A stretch of DNA of 64,000 bases from Escherichia coli. Lineage in GTDB: Bacteria; Pseudomonadota; Gammaproteobacteria; Enterobacterales; Enterobacteriaceae. The position numbers and the translations under genes are program-made. Every line of letters starts with the position of its first letter. The first letter of the stretch is position 1. The notes under the pieces were generated by a model. That model saw only the letters and a program-made list of their open reading frames with translations. It ran no database searches and was not told where the DNA came from. The stretch lies in the NCBI RefSeq assembly GCF_003790525.1, contig NZ_CP033635.1; one strand, given 5' to 3'. Positions 34 through 57,055 of the stretch are shown here, piece by piece.

Positions 34-510
34 TTAAAGCAGACCGTGTTCCGCAAAGGAGAAAACCTGGCTGCCACCGATTATCAGATGGTCCGGTACC
101 CGGATATCCACCAGGGCCAGTGCCTGTACCAGACGTTCCGTAATAAGGCGGTCAGCCTTACTGGGTGTGACTTCACCTGACGGGTGATTGTGTGCCAGTA
201 CCACGGCGGCGGCATTGTGGTACAGGGCGCGTTTAATCACCTCCCGGGGATGGACTTCCGTGCGGTTGATGGTGCCTGTGAAGAGGGTTTCACCGGCAAT
301 CAGCTGATTCTGGTTGTTCAGGTACAGCACCCGGAATTCTTCACGCTCCAGTCCCGCCATGTTCAGAATCAGCCATTCCCGTGCCGCACGGGTGGAGGTG
401 AAGGCCACGCCGGGTTCATGAAGATGGCGGTCCAGGGTTTTCAGGGCCCGCTGAATGAGGCTGCGCTCACCGGGCGTCATCGCTCCGGGCAGAAAGGAAA
501 GCTGTTGCAT
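34..510 (-). CDS. RadC-like JAB/MPN-domain protein (YeeS/YkfG/YfjY family of CP4-type islands)
   Basis: ORF 34..525. The internal Met at 510 gives MQQLSFLPG..., as I recall for K-12 YeeS. Carries the JAB motif LAHNHPSGEVTPSKAD. Confidence 0.88.
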   Translation of the reverse strand: MQQLSFLPGAMTPGERSLIQRALKTLDRHLHEPGVAFTSTRAAREWLILNMAGLEREEFRVLYLNNQNQLIAGETLFTGTINRTEVHPREVIKRALYHNAAAVVLAHNHPSGEVTPSKADRLITERLVQALALVDIRVPDHLIIGGSQVFSFAEHGLL

Positions 511-525
511 TGTGCTTCTCTCCAT

Positions 526-1005
526 TCAGTCGATGATGCGCATAATGGCGCTGCATTCCGGATGCTGCAGGGCGTAATCCCGCAGACGGTAATAATGAAC
601 CGTCATGGCATAACACTCCGTACGACAGGCATGATGACTGTACGTCATCAGACAGGCAGCAATGCCGGCGGCTTCCGGGCTCATTTCAGCGCGGTTACCG
701 TTCATGGCATTGAACAGTACCCATGTTTCGTCATCATCATCATCCGGTTCGGGTGCCATAAATGCCCCGCCGTTGTTCAGGGTGTACAGATTCCAGATAC
801 CACCGCAGTAGTCTTCACACAGACGGTCCATCCAGCCGAAGACACGGGGCTCCAGGGTCACCCACTGTGGAATGAGGCCAAAGTGCTGCGGCCAGAAGCT
901 GATACGTTGTTCATCAGGGACGAGGCTGGCAACCAACTGAGGCGGATTATTCTCTGGTGTTGTAGCTGAATAAATTGTGGGGGTATTCTGAGAAACGGTT
1001 TTCAT
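526..1005 (-). CDS. antirestriction protein (YfjX/YafX family)
   Basis: 159-aa ORF sitting directly upstream of the radC-like gene, as in CP4-type islands. Has the acidic PEPDDDDDETW patch and the conserved C-terminal half typical of this family. Confidence 0.82.
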   Translation of the reverse strand: MKTVSQNTPTIYSATTPENNPPQLVASLVPDEQRISFWPQHFGLIPQWVTLEPRVFGWMDRLCEDYCGGIWNLYTLNNGGAFMAPEPDDDDDETWVLFNAMNGNRAEMSPEAAGIAACLMTYSHHACRTECYAMTVHYYRLRDYALQHPECSAIMRIID

Positions 1006-1086
1006 GAGATAACGCCTTAAATAACAAATAAATGTGTGTTTTTCAGGAACGAAAGCTGAATGATTCCCTCACTCAGGGAAACGGCA

Positions 1087-1908
1087 TCAGCGCAGGCTCT
1101 CCAGCATCGTTTCTGCTATCACCCACAATGCGCGATTGAGCTTAATGTCGGTATCAATGCTGTGAATGGCCCGGGTGTGGATACGTTTTCCTTTTGCACT
1201 GCGTCCCTGAAGACCGCCCTTGAGCATATTCTCCTGGATGGTCTGATAAGCACTCCACAGGTCCTTACCGTAATCCTCCCGGCGTCGTGGTGTCAGAATG
1301 TCGGCGGTGGTGACGGGCTGATGTTCATCACCATAACGGTAAGTCAGTGCCGCCTGTGCCAGCGCCTGGCGTGCCGGTGGCGGCAGGACCAGCGACTGCA
1401 TGGCATCACGCTTCTCCTCTATCCGGTCAAACACGCCCACCACCTCGTAAGCCCCTTCAATGACTCTGTCCACCACATTTCCCCTGTGCGGAACACGCAC
1501 CTCTCCCAGAGACTGACCACAGACGCACCCGTTCTGGCAGACGAATCTGAAGTAACCCGGCAGCATCTGGTAGCTGGAGGTACCGTCATGGGAGTTGAGC
1601 AGGATGATCTCCGGGACATGCTGTCCGTTTATTTCCCCGTCACGACGTAGACGCAGCATGTGTTTTGTGTATCCCCGGTGGCCCGGGTCCCGTACGCGGG
1701 TCTGGCAGGCGAAAAAGGGCTGGAAGCCTTCCCGCTGCAGGCTTTCCAGCACGGTGATGGTGGGGATATACGTATAGTTCTGGCTTCGGGACGTGTGTTT
1801 CTCTTCCCCGAAAATACTCGGTACATGGTGCATCAGCTCTTCATGTGTCAGTGGGCGGTCACGGCGTATCTGGTTTGCAGCATAACCAAAACGACTGGCT
1901 AATCGCAT
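1087..1908 (-). CDS. DUF932 protein (YfjQ/YafZ family)
   Basis: 273-aa ORF starting MRLASRFG..., in the conserved position within the CP4-type module. Confidence 0.82.
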   Translation of the reverse strand: MRLASRFGYAANQIRRDRPLTHEELMHHVPSIFGEEKHTSRSQNYTYIPTITVLESLQREGFQPFFACQTRVRDPGHRGYTKHMLRLRRDGEINGQHVPEIILLNSHDGTSSYQMLPGYFRFVCQNGCVCGQSLGEVRVPHRGNVVDRVIEGAYEVVGVFDRIEEKRDAMQSLVLPPPARQALAQAALTYRYGDEHQPVTTADILTPRRREDYGKDLWSAYQTIQENMLKGGLQGRSAKGKRIHTRAIHSIDTDIKLNRALWVIAETMLESLR

Positions 1909-2008
1909 ACTTTGCTCCTTATCGGTGGTTAAGATTTACTGGTGTAATAAATGAAAAAAACCACGTCTCCCGGAGAAGACGCGGCCTGACAGATGAAATG
2001 AATGACGT

Positions 2009-2242
2009 TTATTGTCTGAGAAGCCCTTCACTGGCGAGATACGGATTTAGCTGTTTTCCGGCATCAGGTTCAAAATTCCAGCACCGCCAGCGTAGCTGCC
2101 CTTCAGCATTGCGAATAACCAACCGGAAATGCGTTCCCTGGTCATCTTCAGTAAACACATTGCGGTAAGCTGTTGTGACAGCCATCGCCTGTTCGCGTGA
2201 GAAAGGGCCTTCGGGCAATAAAACAGGGTGACAGTCCGACAT
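2009..2242 (-). CDS. DUF905 small protein (YkfF-like)
   Basis: 77-aa ORF. The motif [24 protein letters not shown] resembles recalled K-12 YkfF. Confidence 0.72.
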
Positions 2243-2247
2243 ACCGG

Positions 2248-2925
2248 CTATTTTCCGATAAATTCAACGCTGGCACCGGTGGCATTACCGTCAGCACCAA
2301 CCGTGACGGTCACTTTGTCGTACGCACGGTCTTCAGGATTGAACACTTCAAACTCAACCTTATTGCCTTTTACTTCGTAAGAGCCAAAATCAGCGGTTTC
2401 TGTTGTTTCCTCGTCATATTCCCGGGCGTATGCCTGCCGGGCAGCCTGCAGGACGGAATCTTTATTAATAGTGGTCGTCTGTTTCGGGGAAAAACCGGCA
2501 AGTGATGTGACAAATTTCGGACAGACCTTCAGCATATCACCGCGGGTGAATTCCATTCGTACACCAAATGCCTGTAAAACGGACACATCACGCTCTGCTA
2601 TGGAGTGAACGGCTTTTTTGACCATTTCCGGCGCCTGTCCGACTTCCACCTCAACAGCCCTGAATCCCGTCTGCTGATTACACATTTGTGATGTGGGGAT
2701 CAGGTTACCGTTAATACTGATACGGCTGCCCAGGAGCGTCTGTACGCCATTCGGGCATTCCTGCATCAGGCCGGTAATACCAATCGTGCCATTTTTCAGC
2801 ATTACCAGTGCCTGACCATCTTCCGTCATGGTCTGACACCAGCCGTTTTTGACAGCCCAGTTGCCGGCGGAGGCGGAGAAGGATGCCACAGTGAACAGCA
2901 GGGGAAAAAGAATTCTGGTATTCAT
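2248..2925 (-). CDS. exported hypothetical protein (signal peptide)
   Basis: 225-aa ORF with an N-terminal signal-like segment [20 protein letters not shown]. Tightly packed in the same operon-like string, 5 nt before the DUF905 gene. Confidence 0.6.
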
Positions 2926-3043
2926 GACTGACCTCTGAAATTAAAGAGCGTGTTATTGATAATGACAGACGGTATACGGCAGTGGTTACCGTAATCCGTT
3001 GTCGTGTAAAGGTATACGGTTGCCACGGGGGACTCCGGGGCGC

Positions 3044-3928
3044 TCAGAACAGGTGATCCCACAGTGTGACCAGCAGGTGGATAATGCGGGCCCGGGCTTT
3101 ACGCAGAAGCTGTAACATCCAGGCCGGAAAACTGAACCGGGCAGCGGCGTCGTCAAAACTTTTCCCGATGGCGTCACCAAAAGTCTGTTGTGCGTGTTTC
3201 TGGGCCTGTTCAGAGCGGTTTTCTCCCCGGATATGTGAATAAACCGCGCTGGTTGCCTGTGGTGGCAGTGCGTGGATCATCAGTGACACCAGTGCCTGAA
3301 GATTCCAGCCGACAGGCGCTGCAACGGAGAGTACCGGAAATGATGACGGGAACAGGGTGGCCACCCGGGCTGTTACTGTCGCCAGTGAGAGTTCCTGCTG
3401 ACGGGACGGGCATTTTTCTGTGTCGTTCCATTCTTCAGCAGGAAACACGCGATCGGCATGGCTGAGAACAAACAGAAAACGCGAGGGATCGGCATCTTCA
3501 TTCAGTAAAAACTGATGCATGGCGATGTCGGCAGCATACGCACGTTCATCAGCCCGCAGGATCCAGATAATCAGATCCAGTTCCGGTAGCAACTGATGAT
3601 AAAGTGCCCGGTATTCCTGATCATGCTGCGGTGTCTCACCAATGCCGGGCAGATCGACCAGCGTCATTCTGCGTTCACCGATCTGCAGGGTGAGGTGATG
3701 AGCCTGGCGGGTGCAGCCGTTCAGGGGATGCGTGGCGCAGATATGGGACTGAAAAATGGCATTACACAGGCTGCTTTTGCCTGTGCCGGATTTACCCATA
3801 ATGCCAATCACGGGCTCGTAATGAATAACACCGTGGAGATGTTCAAGGATTTTCTGGCGAATTTCTTCAGGAAGAAACGTCAGATATGATTTCACTTGTG
3901 CAGAGAGGGAAGAATGGCTGAATGACAT
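3044..3928 (-). CDS. YfjP/YeeP/YkfA-type small GTPase
   Basis: P-loop GKSGTGKSS, a DLPG (G3) motif, and the conserved first-gene position in the CP4-type tail module. Confidence 0.85.
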   Translation of the reverse strand: MSFSHSSLSAQVKSYLTFLPEEIRQKILEHLHGVIHYEPVIGIMGKSGTGKSSLCNAIFQSHICATHPLNGCTRQAHHLTLQIGERRMTLVDLPGIGETPQHDQEYRALYHQLLPELDLIIWILRADERAYAADIAMHQFLLNEDADPSRFLFVLSHADRVFPAEEWNDTEKCPSRQQELSLATVTARVATLFPSSFPVLSVAAPVGWNLQALVSLMIHALPPQATSAVYSHIRGENRSEQAQKHAQQTFGDAIGKSFDDAAARFSFPAWMLQLLRKARARIIHLLVTLWDHLF

Positions 3929-4034
3929 ACCGGTATCCTGTTGATTTCGCTGAACCGGATCACACTAATCCGGTTTATCATTCAGGTAATATGGACGTGA
4001 AAAAATCTGGAGTGACAAAGTGTGGAGGGAAGAG

Positions 4035-5009
4035 ATGACGGCACAACAAAGTGATGCGCTGCGTGAGATTGCTAATAAAGCCAGAGTTACCACCATTCTT
4101 CAGAGTAAGGCCTGGAAAGATACCCAGCGAATACTGAAGCGCAGCGGACTTGTGTGCAGAGAACGATCAGAGCCGTTTGATCCGGAGAAACATTTTGACT
4201 GTTATACGGTGCGTTATCTGTACCTGCTTAACATAATAGCACTTGAGCTAAGGCCAGATACAAGGCCAGATACACGGATTAAGGTTGAGGTGGGCCACTG
4301 GTATCGTATGACGGGTAAACGTTTATCACTTAATGTCCCGCCTTTTATGCTGATTCCGCGTAATATCCGGAGAAAAGTGGATGGATTCAGGCAATCAGAA
4401 GGTAAAACAACAAAAAAACCGACTCAACCGTTCACGGGCAGTTTGTATGAGGTTTTGAGCGGGGATATTGATTCGGCTAAGCTGGACGCATGGATTGCTG
4501 GACTACCTCTGAGTGCGCTGGAGGGAGCGAAGGAAATCCCAATCATGGGATTTAGTCCATGGGTTGTAGCCAAATCTGTTCGTCAGTCTGCATCCCCGAC
4601 GTTTGAACTTTTTTATCAGGAGTATCAGTCCCTGGTATTAAAATCTGTTTTTAAACTGGAACCGGGATTTGAACAACTTTTAACAAGACTAAGCTTTATA
4701 AAACAATCAATCCTCAGCAAACAACAATACAGGGTTAAATCGCAGTTACTGGAGAGACTGGGGAATGTGTTGTTTTTCACGTTGCTTTATAACCAGGGAT
4801 GTCCGGGAGAGTTTATAAATACACTTGTGGAAAAGGAGGACATTTATCTGAAAGCGTCCCCCGGGGAAGAAAAGGTGAAAGCACACCAGAAGCTGATTAA
4901 CTACATTGAAGAGTTCTGCAACGAAATGACGGAAAAGTACCTGATGCCTGCAGCCGGGAGACACTACAAAAAGAGGAAAACTGCCAGGAGTGGAAGTAGT
5001 GAAAGTTAA
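4035..5009 (+). CDS. hypothetical protein (324 aa from ATG 4035), no recognisable domain
   Basis: Long uninterrupted ORF (track 4020..5009). ATG 4035 follows GGAGGG at 4024-4029. Divergent from the GTPase operon. Contains a 12-bp tandem repeat (aaggccagatac x2) encoding RPDTRPDT. Confidence 0.6.
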   Translation: MTAQQSDALREIANKARVTTILQSKAWKDTQRILKRSGLVCRERSEPFDPEKHFDCYTVRYLYLLNIIALELRPDTRPDTRIKVEVGHWYRMTGKRLSLNVPPFMLIPRNIRRKVDGFRQSEGKTTKKPTQPFTGSLYEVLSGDIDSAKLDAWIAGLPLSALEGAKEIPIMGFSPWVVAKSVRQSASPTFELFYQEYQSLVLKSVFKLEPGFEQLLTRLSFIKQSILSKQQYRVKSQLLERLGNVLFFTLLYNQGCPGEFINTLVEKEDIYLKASPGEEKVKAHQKLINYIEEFCNEMTEKYLMPAAGRHYKKRKTARSGSSES

Positions 5010-7522: not shown

Positions 7523-8254
7523 ATGAATCAACCAATACACAATGCTTACTGGTTATCCCGTTTTGACAGCCTTCTCAACAGTGCCCTGGCGCAACACCGT
7601 GCCGTTTCGTTAATCCGGGTGGATTTACGTTTTCCTGAGTATATGCCTGCCACCATTATGGATACCGATTTAGATTCAGCGGTGATTTCTCGTTTTTTCG
7701 AATCCCTGAAAGCCAAAATCCAGGCTTACCAGCGGAAAAAACGACGTGCCAACAAGCGTGTGCGTGCAACCACCCTGCATTATTTCTGGTGTCGGGAGTT
7801 TGGCAAGGAAAAAGGCAGGAAACATTATCACGTGATATTACTGCTCAACAAAGATACCTGGTGCTCGCCAGGGGATTTCACCGTTCCTTCTTCGCTGGCG
7901 ACACTGATCAAGCTGGCATGGTGTAGTGCTCTGCATCTTGAGCCCTGGCAGGGTAATGGACTGGTTCATTTTTCCAGGCGGACGCCTTTCCGTAAACCGA
8001 CATCATCTGATGCTCGCCCTTCTTCCGATGATACGCCTTTGTCGGGTGGATGTTCTGATACCAGGAAGGCTTCAGACAAAAAGCCGGGTGAAGCCGCTGT
8101 TCTCTGGATCAAGCGTGGTGATGTGGAAGCGCTGCAGAAAGCCCGGAACAGAGCCAGTTATCTCGTGAAATATGAGACGAAGCAGCATGACGGTTCCGGG
8201 CAACGTAATTATGGTTGCAGTCGTGGGCCGGGGCGTCTGCTGGATGGCAGGTGA
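7523..8254 (+). CDS. YfjJ/YagK (inovirus Gp2-type) family protein, paralogue 1
   Basis: 243-aa ORF. The N-terminal VSLIRVDLRFPEY... and HYHVILLLN motifs are typical of this family. SD GGAGA lies 9 nt upstream. Confidence 0.75.
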   Translation: MNQPIHNAYWLSRFDSLLNSALAQHRAVSLIRVDLRFPEYMPATIMDTDLDSAVISRFFESLKAKIQAYQRKKRRANKRVRATTLHYFWCREFGKEKGRKHYHVILLLNKDTWCSPGDFTVPSSLATLIKLAWCSALHLEPWQGNGLVHFSRRTPFRKPTSSDARPSSDDTPLSGGCSDTRKASDKKPGEAAVLWIKRGDVEALQKARNRASYLVKYETKQHDGSGQRNYGCSRGPGRLLDGR

Positions 8255-48105: not shown

Positions 48106-48459
48106 TCATCCCTGGCGTTGCCAGGTGGCACTTCCGTTCTTACAGTCAACGCGCACACGATACTGAATATCTGCTTTCTTTCCACGGGCAGTGAGATGCA
48201 CAGTGATGACATTATCACCTTTATTTACCGGCTCACGAAGATTCACCCAGACAACGGGACGCTGCTGACCGAGAATTTCCTGGTCATCTTTCCACTGAAA
48301 CACCTGTTTCTGGAGATAGTCCCGTTTGACGCTGGCTGCAACAGTCGATGCTTCCTGTCCTTCACATCGTGGAAAACTGACGGTTCTGTTTTTTTCAGCG
48401 GCCAGTGATGATGCACAGATACCGAAGATGAGCAGAATGGAAGAGAGTGCTTTGTTCAT
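48106..48459 (-). CDS. YebF-family secreted protein paralogue
   Basis: 117 aa with a signal peptide. [24 protein letters not shown]...[20 protein letters not shown] aligns by eye with recalled YebF ([24 protein letters not shown]...[21 protein letters not shown]). Confidence 0.8.
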   Translation of the reverse strand: [117 protein letters not shown]

Positions 48460-48773
48460 TTACAGGTCCTCCACAGGGGATAGTTTCATTGAGGAGTTAC
48501 ATCTTAACAACATAAAACAGCATTTCCTGTAACAATCCTCACATAACTTCTTATCCCGTCACTTCCCGTTTCACATGGGCAGCATAGCCTGTTTTTTAAC
48601 CCGTTTTTCAGTCATTTCCATAAACAAATCTTCGCTGACGATAAATCTTTTTTCTGTTTAACGATCGATTTTGTCGATCGATATGATATGTATAATTCAT
48701 TTTACCAATGAGAAATCCATCTTAAAATTGGACAAATTCATATGTCTGAAGGAAACATCAGGAGAGGTGGATT

Positions 48774-49523
48774 GTGAAAAAGTTACTGGCACTCACTGCG
48801 GTAGCTGCGCTTACCGGCACGTTTTCAACGCTGGCGCTGGCAGATGCGGATAAAACCGGGTTCTATATCACGGGTAAGGCTGGTGCATCTGTTATCACTC
48901 AGGATAATCAGCGTTTTAGTCAGGACTTTGGTGATGTTGTTTATAAGTATAAAGGCGGTGACAAGAGCGATACGGTTTTTGGCGCCGGCCTTGCGGTGGG
49001 ATATGACTTTTATCAGCACTACAATGTACCTGTTCGCACGGAAGTTGAATTCTATGGTCGCGGCTCTGCGAATTCCCGCTATACACTGGATACATGGGAG
49101 TCCCCGTCTGGAGATAATGGTTGGAAGGAAGACACACAAAACAGGCTCAGCGTGAATACCCTGATGGTGAGCACGTATTATGATTTCAGAAACAGCAGTG
49201 CTTTCACTCCGTGGGTATCAGCCGGACTGGGTTATGCGCGGGTACATCATAAGGCAACATACACCGATACCACCTGGCATAAATCAGGTGAAGTAAGTGA
49301 TGCTTCTTCATTACATTACTCGGGATATGATAACAATTTCGCATGGAGCCTTGGTGTTGGCGTGAAATATGATGTCACCCCGGATTTCAGTCTTGACCTT
49401 GCTTATCGCTATCTTGATGCAGGTGATTCAACCCTGACGTATAAAGACGGGCAGGATACATATAAATCCTCTGTTGATGTCAGAAGTAACGAATTTACGT
49501 TAGGCGCTACATACAGCTTCTGA
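48774..49523 (+). CDS. Hra1/Hek/Tia-family 8-stranded beta-barrel adhesin/invasin
   Basis: GTG 48774 after GGAGAGGTGG. Signal peptide, then TGFYITGKAGASV..., AFTPWVSAGLGYARVH, FAWSLGVGVKYDVTPDFSLDLAYRYLDAGDS, terminal F. Closely patterned on recalled Hra1. Confidence 0.82.
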   Translation: MKKLLALTAVAALTGTFSTLALADADKTGFYITGKAGASVITQDNQRFSQDFGDVVYKYKGGDKSDTVFGAGLAVGYDFYQHYNVPVRTEVEFYGRGSANSRYTLDTWESPSGDNGWKEDTQNRLSVNTLMVSTYYDFRNSSAFTPWVSAGLGYARVHHKATYTDTTWHKSGEVSDASSLHYSGYDNNFAWSLGVGVKYDVTPDFSLDLAYRYLDAGDSTLTYKDGQDTYKSSVDVRSNEFTLGATYSF

Positions 49524-49735
49524 ATGTAATATCTGACTACACGTTGTTAAATTCAAAATCGCAGCGTGTAGTCTGATTTGATAGTTTAATACAACAGACA
49601 CGTACCTTCATGGCACTTCCTTAGCCCCCGGTTACGTTCATTTGTACCAGATGTAAGTGGCGTAAAACCATTGTCCAAATAGTGGCTCTAAAAGATTAGA
49701 TACTCATTTAGATATTATATAGCATAAGGTGATAT

Positions 49736-50089
49736 ATGGGATTTTGGGATGCTATAATGGGATTCGGTAAGCTTGCTTCTAATGCTGCTGCTGAAACGAT
49801 GAAAAAAGTCAATTTCAATGTGTGGGATAAAATAAAATCATCTCCGGTAGAAAGAATTAACGATTTTTATAACCAAAATAATACATCTGAGTATAATCGG
49901 CCAGCATACAGAGGATTGGCTATTGCTGCTCTATGTTTTAGGGGGGATTGGAGCGGGGAGCGTTTATGGCGTGAAGATCAGGAGGCTGCTAATTGGTTAA
50001 AGAATTTTAGAATAAAAATTTCACTGGATACATGTGATTCTGCAGATGAACTACGTAAAATAATCGATCGTCTTACAGAACTGAATTGA
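49736..50089 (+). CDS. hypothetical protein (117 aa), cassette gene A
   Basis: ATG after AAGGTGA. AT-rich. No recognisable motif. Confidence 0.55.
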   Translation: MGFWDAIMGFGKLASNAAAETMKKVNFNVWDKIKSSPVERINDFYNQNNTSEYNRPAYRGLAIAALCFRGDWSGERLWREDQEAANWLKNFRIKISLDTCDSADELRKIIDRLTELN

Positions 50090-50178
50090 TTACTGGAGGT
50101 GAAGTTATTTTTATAGGGATAAGTTGAAAATATTTATATGCCCTGTAAGTGTTATTTATATATCGAGAGCGTGAGCCA

Positions 50179-50379
50179 ATGGTCTTTCTTCGACCACCTA
50201 CTACATTTATCTGTATGAATTGTCAATGGAGTAAAACTATTATTCATGTGAACTGTACAACAGGATTTTATGAATGTCCTGTGTGTGGAGAGAAAGTTAT
50301 TTATAAACGTAAGGCTACGATTACAGAAAATCTGTTTTCCAGAGTAATGCAATTCTTTCTTAAAAATCATAATATTTGA
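50179..50379 (+). CDS. small 4-Cys zinc-ribbon protein (66 aa), cassette gene B
   Basis: CMNC...(19 aa)...CPVC pattern. The start at 50179 is chosen because it retains both Cys pairs; the track ORF starts at 50149. Confidence 0.5.
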   Translation: MVFLRPPTTFICMNCQWSKTIIHVNCTTGFYECPVCGEKVIYKRKATITENLFSRVMQFFLKNHNI

Positions 50380-50460
50380 TTGATAATAATAATTGTGTCC
50401 CGATGTCTGGCGGAGATAGTTTTTGGAAAGTGATTGTGAAATTTTTAGGTTTTTTGTTGT

Positions 50461-51117
50461 ATGACTGATAATGAAAATATTCTCACACCATCAAAAATCA
50501 TAAAATTTCTGGATTACGCTTATGAAAAATCCATCGATGGTATTGGTATCCCGGGGATAGATACGGCACATAGTCTTGCGGAAAGTTATCTGAAAACGGG
50601 TAGTAGTTTAAAAGAACAGATAAATAGCCTTATTCGATGGCAGAATACCAAGTCTGCCACATCAGGTTTTCTTACTGGTCTTGGAGGAATTATTACATTA
50701 CCAGTAACTATACCGACCAATATTTCAAGTGTCCTTTTCATTCAGGTCAGGATGGTAGCATCTATTGCGATCATGTGTGGTCAGGATATTCGTGATGATA
50801 AAGTCAGAACTATTGTTTATACCTGTCTTGTAGGTAATGCTGCGAAAGATATTTTGAAGGAAGCAGGAATTCAGATAGGACAAAGGTTGACAACAAATGC
50901 AATTAGATGTATTAGCAAAGAAATTATTGTAAAGATAAATAAGGCTGTCGGTTTCAGACTGCTTACAAAAACAGGTGCTACTGGTGTTATTAATATGTCA
51001 AAGCTTGTTCCTGTTGTAGGAGGAATCGTTGGTGGTAGTTTTGATGCGATAACAACCAACATCGTTGGTAATTATGCCAGAGATACATTCCTGAGTTTGA
51101 TTGATAATGATTTATAA
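50461..51117 (+). CDS. EcsC-family protein, cassette gene C
   Basis: 218 aa. The Gly-rich amphipathic core ...TSGFLTGLGGIITLPVTIPTNISSVLFIQVRMVASIAIMCGQDIRDD... matches my recollection of PF12787 EcsC proteins. Confidence 0.55.
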   Translation: MTDNENILTPSKIIKFLDYAYEKSIDGIGIPGIDTAHSLAESYLKTGSSLKEQINSLIRWQNTKSATSGFLTGLGGIITLPVTIPTNISSVLFIQVRMVASIAIMCGQDIRDDKVRTIVYTCLVGNAAKDILKEAGIQIGQRLTTNAIRCISKEIIVKINKAVGFRLLTKTGATGVINMSKLVPVVGGIVGGSFDAITTNIVGNYARDTFLSLIDNDL

Positions 51118-51516
51118 AATAAAAGTTTCATAAAAAATAGTATTTTAGGTGTGCTGACGATAGTGGATACTTTAGTATTATTGCTTCAAGTTGCATAATT
51201 TTTAACTAACATTAGGTATGAAATTATCCTGACTGGCGGGTAATACTGCCGCTCAATATGGCAAGGTTGTATTACACTGCAAGGAGAAATTCATCGCATA
51301 TCCTTACCCACAAATTTGGAGGCTATTTTATTTGCCAGTAATAATCATGTTAATCCTGAGAATATAGTTTGATATCATATGGTTAATCATTTATCTTGAT
51401 AGATATCTTCTGGTTTGTATAGGAATTAACTATTGAATATGTCGCCTGAAATCAGAAATCAAAAAATACAAATGACAGTTAACTCCCCACCAACCACTGC
51501 GGTTGGTGGGGAGGAC

Positions 51517-52710
51517 TTATTTCGTTTTTACGTTTTTCTCCATAAGTGAATCAATGTAATCAGCGTACCACTGCATCATTTCACGACGTCCATCCAGATA
51601 TTGCGCATGGTTATAAGTGCCACGCATGACGTTTTTATCAACATGAGCAAGCTGGAGTTCAATCCAGGCTGAGCTGAAATCATGGTCATGGAGAATGGTG
51701 CTGAAGGTATGACGAAATCCGTGGGCTGTTGTCAGGGCATGCCAGCCTGACTGCTCAAGGAATTCATTGATACACTTGCGGTTTCGCGGGAGATCTTTTC
51801 TGAATGCACCAGGAATAATAAAGGCGGAATTACGCGATTCAGTGCGTGTTTTTATCTCCTCCAGTAACGCCAGTACCTGGCGTGAAAGCGGCACAACGTG
51901 CGGTCGTCGCATTTTCATTCTTTCTTTCGGAATAACCCACAGGGCCTCCGTGAAATTAATTTCGTCCCAGGTTGCCAGTCGCAGTTCTCCGGTGCGAACA
52001 GCAGTCAGAACCAGCATCTGCGTTGCCAGCGACATCAGATTTTCGGATGCCGTTATCTGATGCATGAAAGCTCCCATCTGTTCTTCAGAAAGCGTCCTGC
52101 GCTGTTGTTTTTCAGGAGGAAGCAGTACCCCGCTGAGTGTCGATGCCGGATTAACGGTAGCACGTCCTGTTGCTATGGCATAATCAAAAACCTGCGCACA
52201 GAGCTGGCGTGTTTTACGCAGTGCTTCAAGTTTTCCCTGTTCTTCTATAGTCCTCAGAACGTTCAGTATTTCCATGGGGCGGATCCCGGTCACAGGACGG
52301 TTTCCAAGAGCAGGGAAAACATGATTTTCAAGTCTTGCACGCTGATCTGCCTGGTAACCTGTTGTCCATCGACGTGCCATATGGGTAAGCAGCTCCTCTG
52401 CAATGGTGCGAAATGTGCAGGCCATACTTTCCCTGATGGCAAGTTTTCGCGCCTGTTTTTCATACGACGGATCTTTACCTTCAGCCAGAAGTTTCCGTGC
52501 TTCATCCCGCTTCTGACGAGCCTGAGCCAGTGATATGTCAGGATAGACACCAATCACCAGTTTCTTTTCCTTACCGGCAAAGCGGTACTTCAGATTCCAG
52601 TAACGGGCACCGGATTTTTTGACAAGAAGATAAAGGCCCTGACCGTCAGAAAGTTTGTAATCCCTGTCAGCAGGTTTAGCCGACTCAATTTGTCGAACAG
52701 TAAGTGGCAT
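51517..52710 (-). CDS. P4-type tyrosine integrase (DUF4102 arm-binding N-terminus plus catalytic core)
   Basis: 397 aa. N-terminal LTVRQIESAKPADRDYKLSDGQGLYLLV, and catalytic RTGELR...HGFRHTF...RGTY. Confidence 0.92.
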   Translation of the reverse strand: MPLTVRQIESAKPADRDYKLSDGQGLYLLVKKSGARYWNLKYRFAGKEKKLVIGVYPDISLAQARQKRDEARKLLAEGKDPSYEKQARKLAIRESMACTFRTIAEELLTHMARRWTTGYQADQRARLENHVFPALGNRPVTGIRPMEILNVLRTIEEQGKLEALRKTRQLCAQVFDYAIATGRATVNPASTLSGVLLPPEKQQRRTLSEEQMGAFMHQITASENLMSLATQMLVLTAVRTGELRLATWDEINFTEALWVIPKERMKMRRPHVVPLSRQVLALLEEIKTRTESRNSAFIIPGAFRKDLPRNRKCINEFLEQSGWHALTTAHGFRHTFSTILHDHDFSSAWIELQLAHVDKNVMRGTYNHAQYLDGRREMMQWYADYIDSLMEKNVKTK

Positions 52711-52961
52711 GATGTTACCCCTGCAATGTAGCCCCCATAATAGCCCCCAAAATCATCTTGATGTTCATGGAATATGATTTACCCCCAGAGAGAAGGAATT
52801 TCTTATGATACCTTATTTCAAAGGGGGTTAAAGGGGGAGGGGTTATCTCTGTTGAAATCAGTTGATATCAATAGATCCTCCCCAGAGGGGCGAGGGGACC
52901 GTTCGAACTCGTATTTGACTTTGTCAACAATAATAAAGGGAGCTTTCGCTCCCTTGTTAGA

Positions 52962-54047
52962 TTACGATTTTCTCATTAACAGCCACAGGCTGATTAAGAA
53001 GAAGCTGGCGCTTGGCAACAGTGCGCCGATGATCGGCGGGATGCCATAAACCAACGTCAGCGGGCCGAAGATCTGGTCCAGTACGTAGAAGACAAAACCG
53101 AAGCTGATACCGGTGACCACACGCACGCCCATCGGTACGCTACGCAGTGGGCCAAAGATAAACGACAGCGCCATCAGCATCATCACCGCCACGGATAGCG
53201 GCTGGAAGATTTTGCTCCACATGTTGAGCTGATAACGTCCGGCATCCTGACCGCTCGACTTCAGATACTTCACATAGTTGTGCAAACCACTGATGGAGAG
53301 TGCATCCGGGTCCAGCGCCACCACGCCCAGTTTGTCTGGCGTGAGGTTGGTTTTCCAGGTGCCGCTCACCGTCTGCGAACCGGTGATCTGTTTCGGATTG
53401 GTCAGATCAGATTCATCAACCTGCGACAGACGCCAGACTTTATGTTCCGGGTCAAACTTCGCGGTAGCGGCATAACGTACGGATTGCAGACGACGATTCT
53501 CGTTAAAGGCATAAATACTGATGCCACCTAACTCTTCGTCACCTTTAACCCGCTCAATGTAGACGAAGTTGTTGCCATCTTTCGCCCATAAGCCTTGCTG
53601 AGTGGAGAGCAACGAGCCGCCGTACATCGCCTGCGCACGGTAGTTACGCGCCATCTGCTCGCCCTGCGGCGCGACCCATTCACCAATCGCCATCGTCAGC
53701 AAGACCAGCGGAATGGCGGTTTTCATCACCGACAGCGCCACCTGCATACGGGTAAAACCAGAAGCCTGCATGACTACCAGTTCGCTGCGCTGCGCCAGCA
53801 TCCCAAGACCAAGCAACGCCCCAAGCAGAGCCGCCATCGGGAAGAAGATTTGCACATCTTTCGGCACGCTCAGCAAGGTATACATTCCTGCGCCTAACGC
53901 GTCGTAACTCCCCTGCCCGGCTTTTTTCAGCTGATCGACAAACTTGATAATGCCCGACAGCGACACCAGCATGAACAGCGTCATCATGATGGTGGTGAAA
54001 ATAGTTTTACCGATATAGCGGTCAAGTACGCCAAAAGGTTGCATCAC
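52962..54047 (-). CDS. lptG: LPS export ABC permease LptG
   Basis: 361 aa. ATGA overlap with lptF. Core synteny with pepA. Confidence 0.95.
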   Translation of the reverse strand: MMQPFGVLDRYIGKTIFTTIMMTLFMLVSLSGIIKFVDQLKKAGQGSYDALGAGMYTLLSVPKDVQIFFPMAALLGALLGLGMLAQRSELVVMQASGFTRMQVALSVMKTAIPLVLLTMAIGEWVAPQGEQMARNYRAQAMYGGSLLSTQQGLWAKDGNNFVYIERVKGDEELGGISIYAFNENRRLQSVRYAATAKFDPEHKVWRLSQVDESDLTNPKQITGSQTVSGTWKTNLTPDKLGVVALDPDALSISGLHNYVKYLKSSGQDAGRYQLNMWSKIFQPLSVAVMMLMALSFIFGPLRSVPMGVRVVTGISFGFVFYVLDQIFGPLTLVYGIPPIIGALLPSASFFLISLWLLMRKS

Positions 54048-55144
54048 ACCGCTCCTTTACGCGAAAAACTGGCGCGCAGGCGGCGGACCGGCACGGTGTC
54101 CCAAAGGTTGAGAACAATCGCCAAAGCCAGATAAATCAGGTTAACGGTCCACATCCACAGCGTCGGGTCCAGCTTACCTTTACCGCCGTTCGATTTCAGG
54201 GAGGTCTGGATCAGGAAGAACAACAGATACAGCAGCATGGCTGGCAGCATCGATAGTACGCGTCCCTGACGCGGGTTAACCACGCTCAGCGGTACGACCA
54301 TAAGTGCCATCATAAACACGGTGAACACCAACGTGATACGCCAGTTCAGTTCTGCGCGAGCACGATCGGTGTCAGTGTTCCACAATGTGCGCATGTCCAT
54401 CTGGTCGGTATCGTTCGGGTCGAGCGCCACCGCCTGGTGACCAATGATCGCCTGATAATCCTGGAAATCCGTAATGCGGAAATCACGTAACAGTGCAGTG
54501 CCTTCGAAGCGCGTTCCCTGGTTGAGAGTGACGACCTGGGAGCCGTCGCGCAGCTGGGTTAAATGTCCGGAATCGGCCACCACCACAGAAGGTCGTGCAT
54601 TACCTTTTGGTCGAATTTGCGCGAGGAACACATCTTTGAAATCGCTGCCGTCAACGCTTTCGATGAACAGCACCGAGCTGCCATTAGTCGCTTGCTGGAA
54701 TTGCCCTTGCGCAAGCGCCGCCATGCCAGGGTTCGCTTTCGCTTCTGCTAACACTTCATCCTGATGACGCGATGACCACGGTCCCGCCCACATCACGTTA
54801 ACCGCCGCGACGATTGCCGTGAATACCGCAAGGATCATTGCCGCTTTCACCAGCACCGCTTTGCTCAGGCCGCAGGCATGCATTACCGTAATTTCACTTT
54901 CGGTATACAGTTTGCCCAGCGTCATCAGCAGCCCGAGGAACAGGCTTAATGGCAGGATAAGCTGCGCCATTTCCGGCACGCCCAACCCGAGAAGGGAGAG
55001 CACCAGATTCGCCGGAATATCGCCGTCAACCGCTGCGCCGAGGATCCTCACTAACTTTTGACAGAAGAAGATCAAAAGCAAGATGAAGAGTATCGCCAGC
55101 TGGCTTTTGAGCGTCTCCCGCACCAGATATCTTATGATTATCAC
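54044..55144 (-). CDS. lptF: LPS export ABC permease LptF
   Basis: 366 aa, MIIIRYLVRETLKSQLAILFILLLIFF... Divergent from pepA, as in K-12. Confidence 0.95.
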   Translation of the reverse strand: MIIIRYLVRETLKSQLAILFILLLIFFCQKLVRILGAAVDGDIPANLVLSLLGLGVPEMAQLILPLSLFLGLLMTLGKLYTESEITVMHACGLSKAVLVKAAMILAVFTAIVAAVNVMWAGPWSSRHQDEVLAEAKANPGMAALAQGQFQQATNGSSVLFIESVDGSDFKDVFLAQIRPKGNARPSVVVADSGHLTQLRDGSQVVTLNQGTRFEGTALLRDFRITDFQDYQAIIGHQAVALDPNDTDQMDMRTLWNTDTDRARAELNWRITLVFTVFMMALMVVPLSVVNPRQGRVLSMLPAMLLYLLFFLIQTSLKSNGGKGKLDPTLWMWTVNLIYLALAIVLNLWDTVPVRRLRASFSRKGAV

Positions 55145-55407
55145 TTTAAATACGCCCGTAAAAACTCGTCTTTTGCAGGATTTTAGCTTGTTTCATGGCT
55201 TAAACGTCATTTATTCTCTTGAGTCGTCGAAATCGTCGCTAAGATAATTATACTCAACGGATTCACCTCTCAGATTTTGTTCTGACGTGCCAATGCCGTA
55301 ATAACGTTAAGATTAACACGAAGTCATCGCAACAGCGGACATGAGTTACGAAAGCTTGCAATTCTATCTGTAGCCACCGCCGTTGTCTTTAAGATTCAGG
55401 AGCGTAG

Positions 55408-56922
<1,515 letters not shown>

Positions 56923-57055
56923 GTTTGCGTTTTACCCTCACCCTAACCCTCTCCCTAAGGGAGGGGGAACCGATCGAGCGCAATAGAAATTCATTGCTCA
57001 TCTTTCAGGGTGAGGAATGCAGCAATATTTAAATCCACCACAAGAAGCCCCATAT

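Follow-up and report, generated by a model that had tools for sequence, protein, structure and literature searches.

An EcsC-Family Phage Defense Candidate with Two Small Partner Genes beside a P4-Like Integrase in Escherichia coli

Three small genes, here called A, B, and C, lie next to one another beside a P4-like tyrosine integrase gene in a 64,000-nucleotide stretch of Escherichia coli DNA (NCBI RefSeq assembly GCF_003790525.1, contig NZ_CP033635.1; hereafter the window). Comparison of this trio with related loci (numbered with the prefix L) leads us to infer that it is a small accessory module built around C, an EcsC-family protein of the type catalogued in PADLOC as PDC-S29 and able to work alone. 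Tentatively, C is read as a candidate immune effector that acts at the membrane, with A and B as its partners.

The Locus

The three open reading frames (ORFs) all lie on the plus strand, with gaps of 89 nt between A and B and 81 nt between B and C (Table 1). The GC content is 0.33–0.38 over positions 49700–51500, versus 0.46–0.55 in the upstream gene for a beta-barrel outer membrane protein (OMP), the integrase gene, and the core genes. An earlier note, made from the sequence alone, had described three same-strand genes with these gaps, AT-richer than their surroundings: A without a recognizable motif, B a CxxC...CxxC zinc ribbon, and C an EcsC-like protein. ORF calls, composition, and family searches bear out these descriptions, that of B as far as the two CxxC motifs are concerned.

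Table 1. Features of the trio locus and its flanks (positions in the window)
Feature	Position	Strand	Description
Beta-barrel OMP gene	48774–49523		Upstream of A; 249 aa; generic OMP matches in Pfam and NCBIfam
B′ relic	49586–49681	+	Degenerate N-terminal piece of a second B-like gene, in the interval between the OMP gene and A
Conserved A-B-C block	49727–51176	+	Conserved as DNA between Escherichia lineages 1 and 2 (blastn)
Gene A	49736–50089	+	117-aa ORF
Gene B	50179–50379	+	66 aa from ATG; mechanical ORF from GTG at 50149
Gene C	50461–51117	+	218-aa ORF, EcsC family
AT-rich spacer	51118–51482		Between C and the integrase gene
Hairpin	51483–51513		13-bp stem with 9 GC pairs (terminator scan)
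P4-like tyrosine integrase gene	51517–52710	−	397 aa; Arm-DNA-bind_3, Phage_int_M, and Phage_integrase domains
Island end (TCAATAGATCCTCCCCAG)	52860–52877		Abuts core DNA downstream of lptG

Gene C: Family and Predicted Structure

The protein encoded by C passes the gathering cut-off of the Pfam EcsC family (PF12787; score 45.7 bits, threshold 30.4; E = 8e-12), with residues 49–210 aligned to positions 82–235 of the 240-position model and the first ~80 positions unmatched. Its match to the PADLOC model PDC-S29 is full-length (E = 2.4e-86, 286.8 bits; residues 6–212 on model positions 10–214 of 220), and PDC-S30 is also matched, at E = 1e-11. The earlier note had found nothing at the locus that corresponded to a nameable defense system; the PADLOC result overturns this, and the trio is best seen as a multi-gene variant of an already catalogued candidate family, less novel than had been supposed.

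The phage defense candidate (PDC) systems are a set of 145 identified through guilt-by-embedding in BREX, DISARM, and type I restriction-modification (RM) systems (Payne et al., bioRxiv 10.1101/2024.01.29.577857); PDC-S29 and PDC-S30 are EcsC-family single-gene candidates in PADLOC (bioRxiv 10.1101/2024.01.29.577857). Genes of the PDC-S29 type mostly stand alone, in variable regions, and the PADLOC definition includes no partners, whereas the C of the window has conserved A and B. Unlike the PDC candidates as they were found, it is not embedded in a BREX, DISARM, or type I RM system; Pfam and PADLOC searches identified no known defense system adjoining C in the window.

The founder of PF12787, EcsC of the Bacillus subtilis ecsABC operon, shares with C its Pfam membership but is encoded adjacent to ecsA and ecsB; C, in contrast, leaves the initial part of the Pfam model unmatched and is carried on mobile elements in Proteobacteria. 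No ecsA/ecsB-type ABC transporter genes were seen around C, either among the ORFs of the window or in the Prokaryotic Genome Annotation Pipeline (PGAP) annotation of L001 and L002.

Hydropathy analysis places hydrophobic, Gly-rich segments at residues ~66–106 and ~180–200, and a membrane association of C is proposed on the basis of these peaks. The structure is predicted to be all-helical at moderate confidence (predicted local distance difference test [pLDDT] 67), with residues ~66–106 forming a hydrophobic, Gly-rich hairpin. A sequence search of the PDB with the C profile returned no match among solved structures.

Distribution and Autonomy of Gene C

Homologs of C (2381 at E ≤ 1e-5) retain ~60% identity across Gamma- and Betaproteobacteria, Bacillota, Bacteroidota, and other groups, and an alignment of 16 diverse sequences has 63 invariant columns. 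Their distribution is patchy, on islands, plasmids, and a few prophages: C-type genes occur in 33 of 5426 complete E. coli genomes (0.6%), on 207 plasmids (180 of them from Klebsiella), and on 17 IMG/VR contigs. Neighbor clustering over 80 C loci of GTDB representative genomes gave no recurrent partner, and A homologs were absent from the same 80 loci (tblastn and a family hidden Markov model [HMM]) and from all 17 viral loci; a scan of IMG/VR for A likewise gave nothing. With B-like genes also considered, C stands without A or B in 77 of the 80 genomic loci and in every viral one.

The E. coli plasmid pE6474.4 (L104, NZ_CP116985.1) measures 2131 bp, and its sole credible ORF is a PDC-S29-type gene whose product shares 63% identity with C; the plasmid gave no Rfam match to a replicon RNA, and the protein cluster to which this homolog belongs (P0008) is found mostly on contigs of ~2.2 kb. 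On the one Klebsiella plasmid inspected, IncFIB pSW25HRG of K. pneumoniae (L106), the C-type gene directly follows a DUF2971 gene and adjoins a cluster of ter, PP2C, and kinase genes.

Because the 80 loci contain neither A nor any recurrent partner, because a C-type gene can be the only ORF of a plasmid, and because such genes have spread among plasmids and viral contigs, C is considered an autonomous, horizontally mobile unit, in agreement with its single-gene label in PADLOC. It stands alone outside Escherichia; C is therefore the core unit, with A and B as optional partners.

Conservation of the Trio in Escherichia

Copies of the trio fall into three Escherichia lineages (identities are those of the amino-acid sequences to the window copy). 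Lineage 1 comprises the window, L001, and L002 (A 97%, B 81–96%, C 98–99%) and has the arrangement OMP-A-B-C-integrase. In lineage 2 (L083–L086; A 84%, B 77%, C 90%), the trio adjoins integrase genes at apparent tRNA sites and lies next to QatABCD or a ResIII helicase gene. Lineage 3 (L087, L088, L090, L091, and the plasmid L105; A 70%, B 35%, C 83%) has no integrase, and its trio has an MFS transporter gene on one side and a GGDEF gene on the other. B is thus the most variable member. All three ORFs are open in every lineage, with the exception of A in L090 and L091.

Between the window and L083–L086, blastn gives 85% identity over 1456 bp, and homology ends on both sides of the conserved block listed in Table 1. 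The OMP gene travels with the trio as a block in L001 and L002, and lineage 2 keeps a 44-codon remnant of it before A. The ratio of nonsynonymous to synonymous substitution rates (dN/dS; Nei-Gojobori, between Escherichia lineages, over a range estimated at dS 0.35–1.2) is ~0.2 for A, 0.31 for B, and 0.14 for C, which marks all three ORFs as coding. Within Escherichia, the trio is a co-inherited unit under purifying selection; it is specific to this genus and is not a three-gene system elsewhere. Of the three-gene system proposed in the earlier note, co-inheritance in the three Escherichia lineages is supported; the system as such is not, C being stand-alone outside them.

Gene A

The product of A is a soluble, all-helical protein with a conserved N-terminal motif (MGFWD..G.GK.A) and no match in Pfam, PADLOC, or NCBIfam. 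An exhaustive profile search of 1.84 billion representative proteins yielded a family of 16 members. The AlphaFold2 model has six helices (pLDDT 83.5), and its fold matches are generic TPR-like and helical-repeat proteins only.

Members of this small family recur beside EcsC-family genes. In L113, 43 nt separate a PDC-S29-type gene (56% identity to C) from the A-like gene behind it; in L111 and L112, an A-like gene follows after 34 nt a very divergent EcsC-family gene (PDC-S30 at 2e-14; Pfam EcsC 30.2 bits). Elsewhere, in L092–L094, a complete JukA and JukB pair (PADLOC E = 5e-80 and 1e-65, respectively, in L092) has an A-like gene with 41% identity to A 346 nt further downstream, another adjoins PDC-M09A/B and a BrxR-type WYL regulator in L095–L097, and a third is followed by WYL and TerB genes in L107–L109. 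EcsC-family and Juk-type modules thus repeatedly have A as a partner, and the evidence for a linkage of A to C is good.

Two suggested relationships to Juk proteins were rejected. A is not a JukA homolog, as it matches neither the JukA nor the JukB models and its relative in L092 sits beside a full JukAB pair; a motif resemblance between C and the JukA-like protein of L092 was dropped after hhalign gave no relationship. In L092 (positions 229–4316 of a Logan SRR20950786 contig), JukA, JukB, and the A-like gene share one strand and converge with a gene for a 571-aa protein containing Pkinase, AAA, and nSTAND3 domains; this region may be a compound defense locus.

Gene B

B was not annotated by PGAP; it is regarded as a real gene because it is intact in all three Escherichia lineages, with a dN/dS of 0.31. 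The protein, a putative Zn ribbon, is basic (pI 9.2), with the motif PPxxFxCxxCxW.KT...CPxC and, in the window, the sequence FICMNCQW...ECPVCG; its Zn-ribbon matches in Pfam are all sub-threshold. The copies in the window, lineage 2, L028, and L055 have both CxxC knuckles; in lineage 3 the second reads CPVYG, with Tyr in place of the fourth Cys.

A word-indexed protein search with B found close relatives only. A local HMM identified B-like genes in three of the 80 C loci, at 1–3 kb from the C homolog: Stenotrophomonas L045 (E = 2e-17), Pseudomonas L028 (E = 1e-12), and Luteimonas L055, which was in the HMM training set. A WYL regulator flanks the C homolog in L028, L045, L055, and L077, and a B-like gene is present in three of these four. 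The evidence for B–C linkage is thinner than that for A–C linkage.

The combination of WYL regulator, PDC-S29 gene, and B-like gene is a recurring block in L028 (Pseudomonas fluorescens WCS317), L045, and L055; a HEPN-like gene (RNQxxH motif) is added to it in L028 and L045, and L028 also has three Dynamin_N GTPase genes, one of them with Sel1/TPR repeats, on the flanks of the block. In strain 135 (L002 8621–8842 compared with window 50149–50379), B has 89% nucleotide identity and the flanking A and C have 98–99%, which suggests a local recombination patch or accelerated change limited to B. The B′ relic was found by tblastn with B (44% over 32 aa, MALP*PPVTFICTRCKWRKTIVQI); it keeps the first CxxC knuckle only and has an in-frame stop in the window, and the L002 copy (8048–8167) is without the stop.

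Is the Trio a Functional Unit?

It is improbable that the three genes form no system at all and are unrelated hitch-hikers, adjacent only through the recent kinship of their carrier islands. Almost no C locus has A or B, every copy of the trio belongs to one E. coli island family or to one plasmid, and the spacers of 81–89 nt come with no clear operon signals, so that co-transcription is unproven; all this would fit mere adjacency. The linkage nevertheless survives a dS of ~1 and a changed genomic context. EcsC–A adjacency has arisen independently in at least two further lineages (L113 and L111/L112), with another gene order and, in the latter, a very different EcsC paralog, and Pseudomonas, Stenotrophomonas, and Luteimonas again have B-like genes near C.

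Highly improbable is a toxin-antitoxin or addiction module that stabilizes the island, in which C would be a membrane toxin restrained by B (as a Zn-ribbon antitoxin), by A, or by both. Small, tightly spaced, same-strand genes beside an integrase gene are what such a module would look like, the hydrophobic, Gly-rich helices of C resemble small membrane toxins, and B evolves fast, as antitoxins often do. However, the toxin of a type II system is always accompanied by its antitoxin, whereas C is found without A or B in nearly all genomic loci, in all of the viral loci, and on pE6474.4; a protein so often without these partners is not constitutively toxic, and the addiction reading is therefore disfavored. 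In addition, C is intact in L090 and L091, where A is frameshifted, and the gaps and gene order are unlike the usual overlapping layout of toxin-antitoxin genes.

Defense Neighborhoods and Related Systems

Of the 148 nearest neighbors of C homologs, a minority strongly match defense models, in counts made without matched control loci; these models include ZorA, RT-Toprim, RT-TIR, type I methyltransferase, McrBC, WYL, and other PDC candidates. In L036, a JukA gene (DUF3944 and Ubiq_cyt_C_chap domains; PADLOC E = 5e-76) lies 33 nt downstream of a PDC-S29 gene, in agreement with the remark in the Juk preprint that EcsC-like genes occur in putative operons with jukA (bioRxiv 10.1101/2022.09.17.508391).

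Juk, an anti-jumbo-phage system that consists of the sensor JukA and the effector JukB, resembles the trio in that its components are small proteins without enzymatic domains, and it is linked to the trio families by the L036 pair and by the A-like gene that follows JukAB in L092. It differs from the locus studied here, where JukA (DUF3944 plus a Cbp3-like domain) and JukB are not present: tblastn with two JukA homologs did not find JukA in the window, and A, B, and C match neither JukA nor JukB models. A likeness also exists to modules regulated by WYL or BrxR proteins, through the four WYL-flanked C homologs and the A-like genes near WYL/BrxR genes in L095 and L107. Unlike these, the window has no WYL gene, so any regulation here would depend on A, B, or the host.

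Interpretation

The reading that we tentatively prefer, on the basis of gene neighborhoods, takes C for a candidate immune effector acting at the membrane and A and B for accessory partners that modulate or direct it. C is proposed as an immune candidate because of its match to PDC-S29, the defense-type neighbors of its homologs, the retention of the trio, and the partner links of A and B. Under this proposal, C would have acquired A and B as co-inherited partners in Escherichia and would be an inner-membrane-associated effector that stops phage infection at an early step linked to the membrane or, once activated, damages the membrane of the infected cell; A could bind proteins as an adaptor or regulator of effectors that act at the membrane, and B could be a variable specificity or regulatory subunit.

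Several observations weigh against an immune module of this kind. Identity of ~60% across phyla, together with a dN/dS of 0.14, amounts to a degree of conservation that is unusual in an immune protein. Nearly all C loci lack A and B, and many neighbors of C homologs are housekeeping or metabolic genes. No EcsC entry appears in the list of tested operons in the Juk preprint (bioRxiv 10.1101/2022.09.17.508391). A is frameshifted in L090 (6001–6350) and L091 (326–675), with B and C intact, so that some strains, at least, can do without A. A promoter scan of the locus gave promoter-like sites at the frequency expected from shuffled sequence, none of them assignable, and in the window the trio has envelope genes (DolP-like, YebF-like, and OMP) as its neighbors, not defense genes.

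Some of these points would suit a different role for C, as an envelope or membrane-homeostasis protein without immune function, acting in membrane protein quality control or stress tolerance like B. subtilis EcsC; the trio would then be part of an envelope cargo block, with A and B as minor accessory or regulatory genes. We regard this as unlikely. The strong conservation of C, its Pfam EcsC membership, the single block formed with the DolP-like, YebF-like, and OMP genes in the window, L001, and L002, the ter stress cluster next to it on the Klebsiella plasmid, and the many metabolic neighbors of its homologs are all consistent with such a role. Against it, C has no ecsA/ecsB-type genes around it here, is patchily distributed on mobile genetic elements and rare among E. 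coli genomes, and is the sole cargo of a 2.1-kb plasmid; C and A recur beside JukA, JukAB, WYL/BrxR, Zorya, DRT, and RM genes, and PADLOC lists the C family as embedded in defense systems.

A more ambitious version of the immune reading would make A, B, and C an undescribed multi-component immune module in the same functional network as Juk, with EcsC proteins as membrane-remodeling effectors acting on an early, membrane-associated stage of infection, A as an adaptor or sensor shared by EcsC-type, JukB, and PDC-M09 proteins, and B setting trigger specificity; this is a distinctly unlikely scenario. Should C prove to be an immune effector, a function would be assigned to the widespread and strongly conserved EcsC family, and a membrane-acting mechanism would be added. 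The trio, the independent EcsC–A pairs, and the links to JukA and JukAB lend themselves to comparisons of C alone, A with C, and A with B and C; such constructs could also reveal whether effectors and adaptors are interchangeable in Juk-type immunity. A negative phenotype would be a reason for the EcsC family to leave the lists of defense candidates.

Flanking Genes, Spacer, and Hairpin

Upstream of the trio, the earlier note had placed a Hra/Hek-type adhesin; a beta-barrel OMP gene is indeed present, and its Hra/Hek identity was not confirmed, the Pfam and NCBIfam matches being generic. An Rfam scan of 48400–53100 gave two sub-threshold IS102 matches upstream of the OMP gene and nothing else.

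The strong hairpin that had been noted at the 3′ end of the integrase gene lies directly 3′ of the integrase stop codon, and lineage 2 conserves both it and the 3′ end of the integrase gene. The hairpin probably terminates transcription of the integrase gene and may do the same for the A-B-C transcript. The AT-rich DNA of ~400 bp between C and the integrase gene, previously described as unexplained, contains no Rfam family, conserved ORF, or repeat (51118–51516), and to this extent the description stands; part of it, though, is conserved. Conservation between lineages is confined to the last ~90 bp (the hairpin and the integrase end) and a patch of ~80 bp at 51198–51276 (~73%), and the rest is conserved within lineage 1 only. 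An inserted ISAs1 remnant and TPR gene split the spacer of L002 at 51320–51430. The fold z-score of −3.2 was calculated with the neighboring hairpin included and is probably due mostly to it. The spacer shows no similarity to the GGDEF or TPR genes of the other lineages and was rejected as a remnant of these; it is probably a scar of deletion or rearrangement between C and the integrase gene.

Integrase and Island End

The integrase has the domain architecture of those of P4-type tRNA islands. The earlier note had assigned it to an island of this type; the P4-like domains support the first part of that assignment, whereas the window contains no tRNA, integration at a tRNA 3′ end is not seen here, and the island ends in a palindrome downstream of lptG. 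Core DNA begins at 52878 (52878–56960, with lptG, lptF, and pepA, is 99.1% identical to an E. coli chromosome), and the junction 52877/52878 falls inside the palindrome CCTCCCC..GGGGCGAGGGG. The same island-end sequence accompanies related integrases at glnH, ulaD/E, and ycjD sites. Comparison of window positions 52711–52960 with the regions to the right of the integrase genes in L001, L002, and L099–L101 showed the island end (..TCAATAGATCCTCCCC) abutting a GGGG(C/A)GAGGG half-palindrome downstream of lptG, ulaD/E, ycjD, or glnH, depending on the strain. This suggests that this family of P4-like integrases integrates into intergenic hairpins resembling repetitive extragenic palindromic (REP) sequences, without tRNA sites. 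The more distant integrases of lineage 2 appear to abut tRNA-like sequence, and the sites, judged from neighboring genes, may be pheU and pheV.

The position next to the integrase had been proposed as a hotspot for defense genes. In related islands, it is occupied by genes for a two-component system (a response regulator and a MASE1 kinase) with uhpC, or by a gene for a TPR protein; the position is variable and is not a dedicated defense hotspot.

To the left of the junction, more than 52 kb of the window (1–52877) looks like mosaic island DNA, and the left end of the island lies outside the window. The best matches to this region carry genes for a YadA-like adhesin, a phosphotransferase system, ugpB, a TonB-dependent receptor, a DsbD-family protein, and a TRAP transporter, as well as many genes of the insertion sequence families IS66, IS3, IS21, and IS110.

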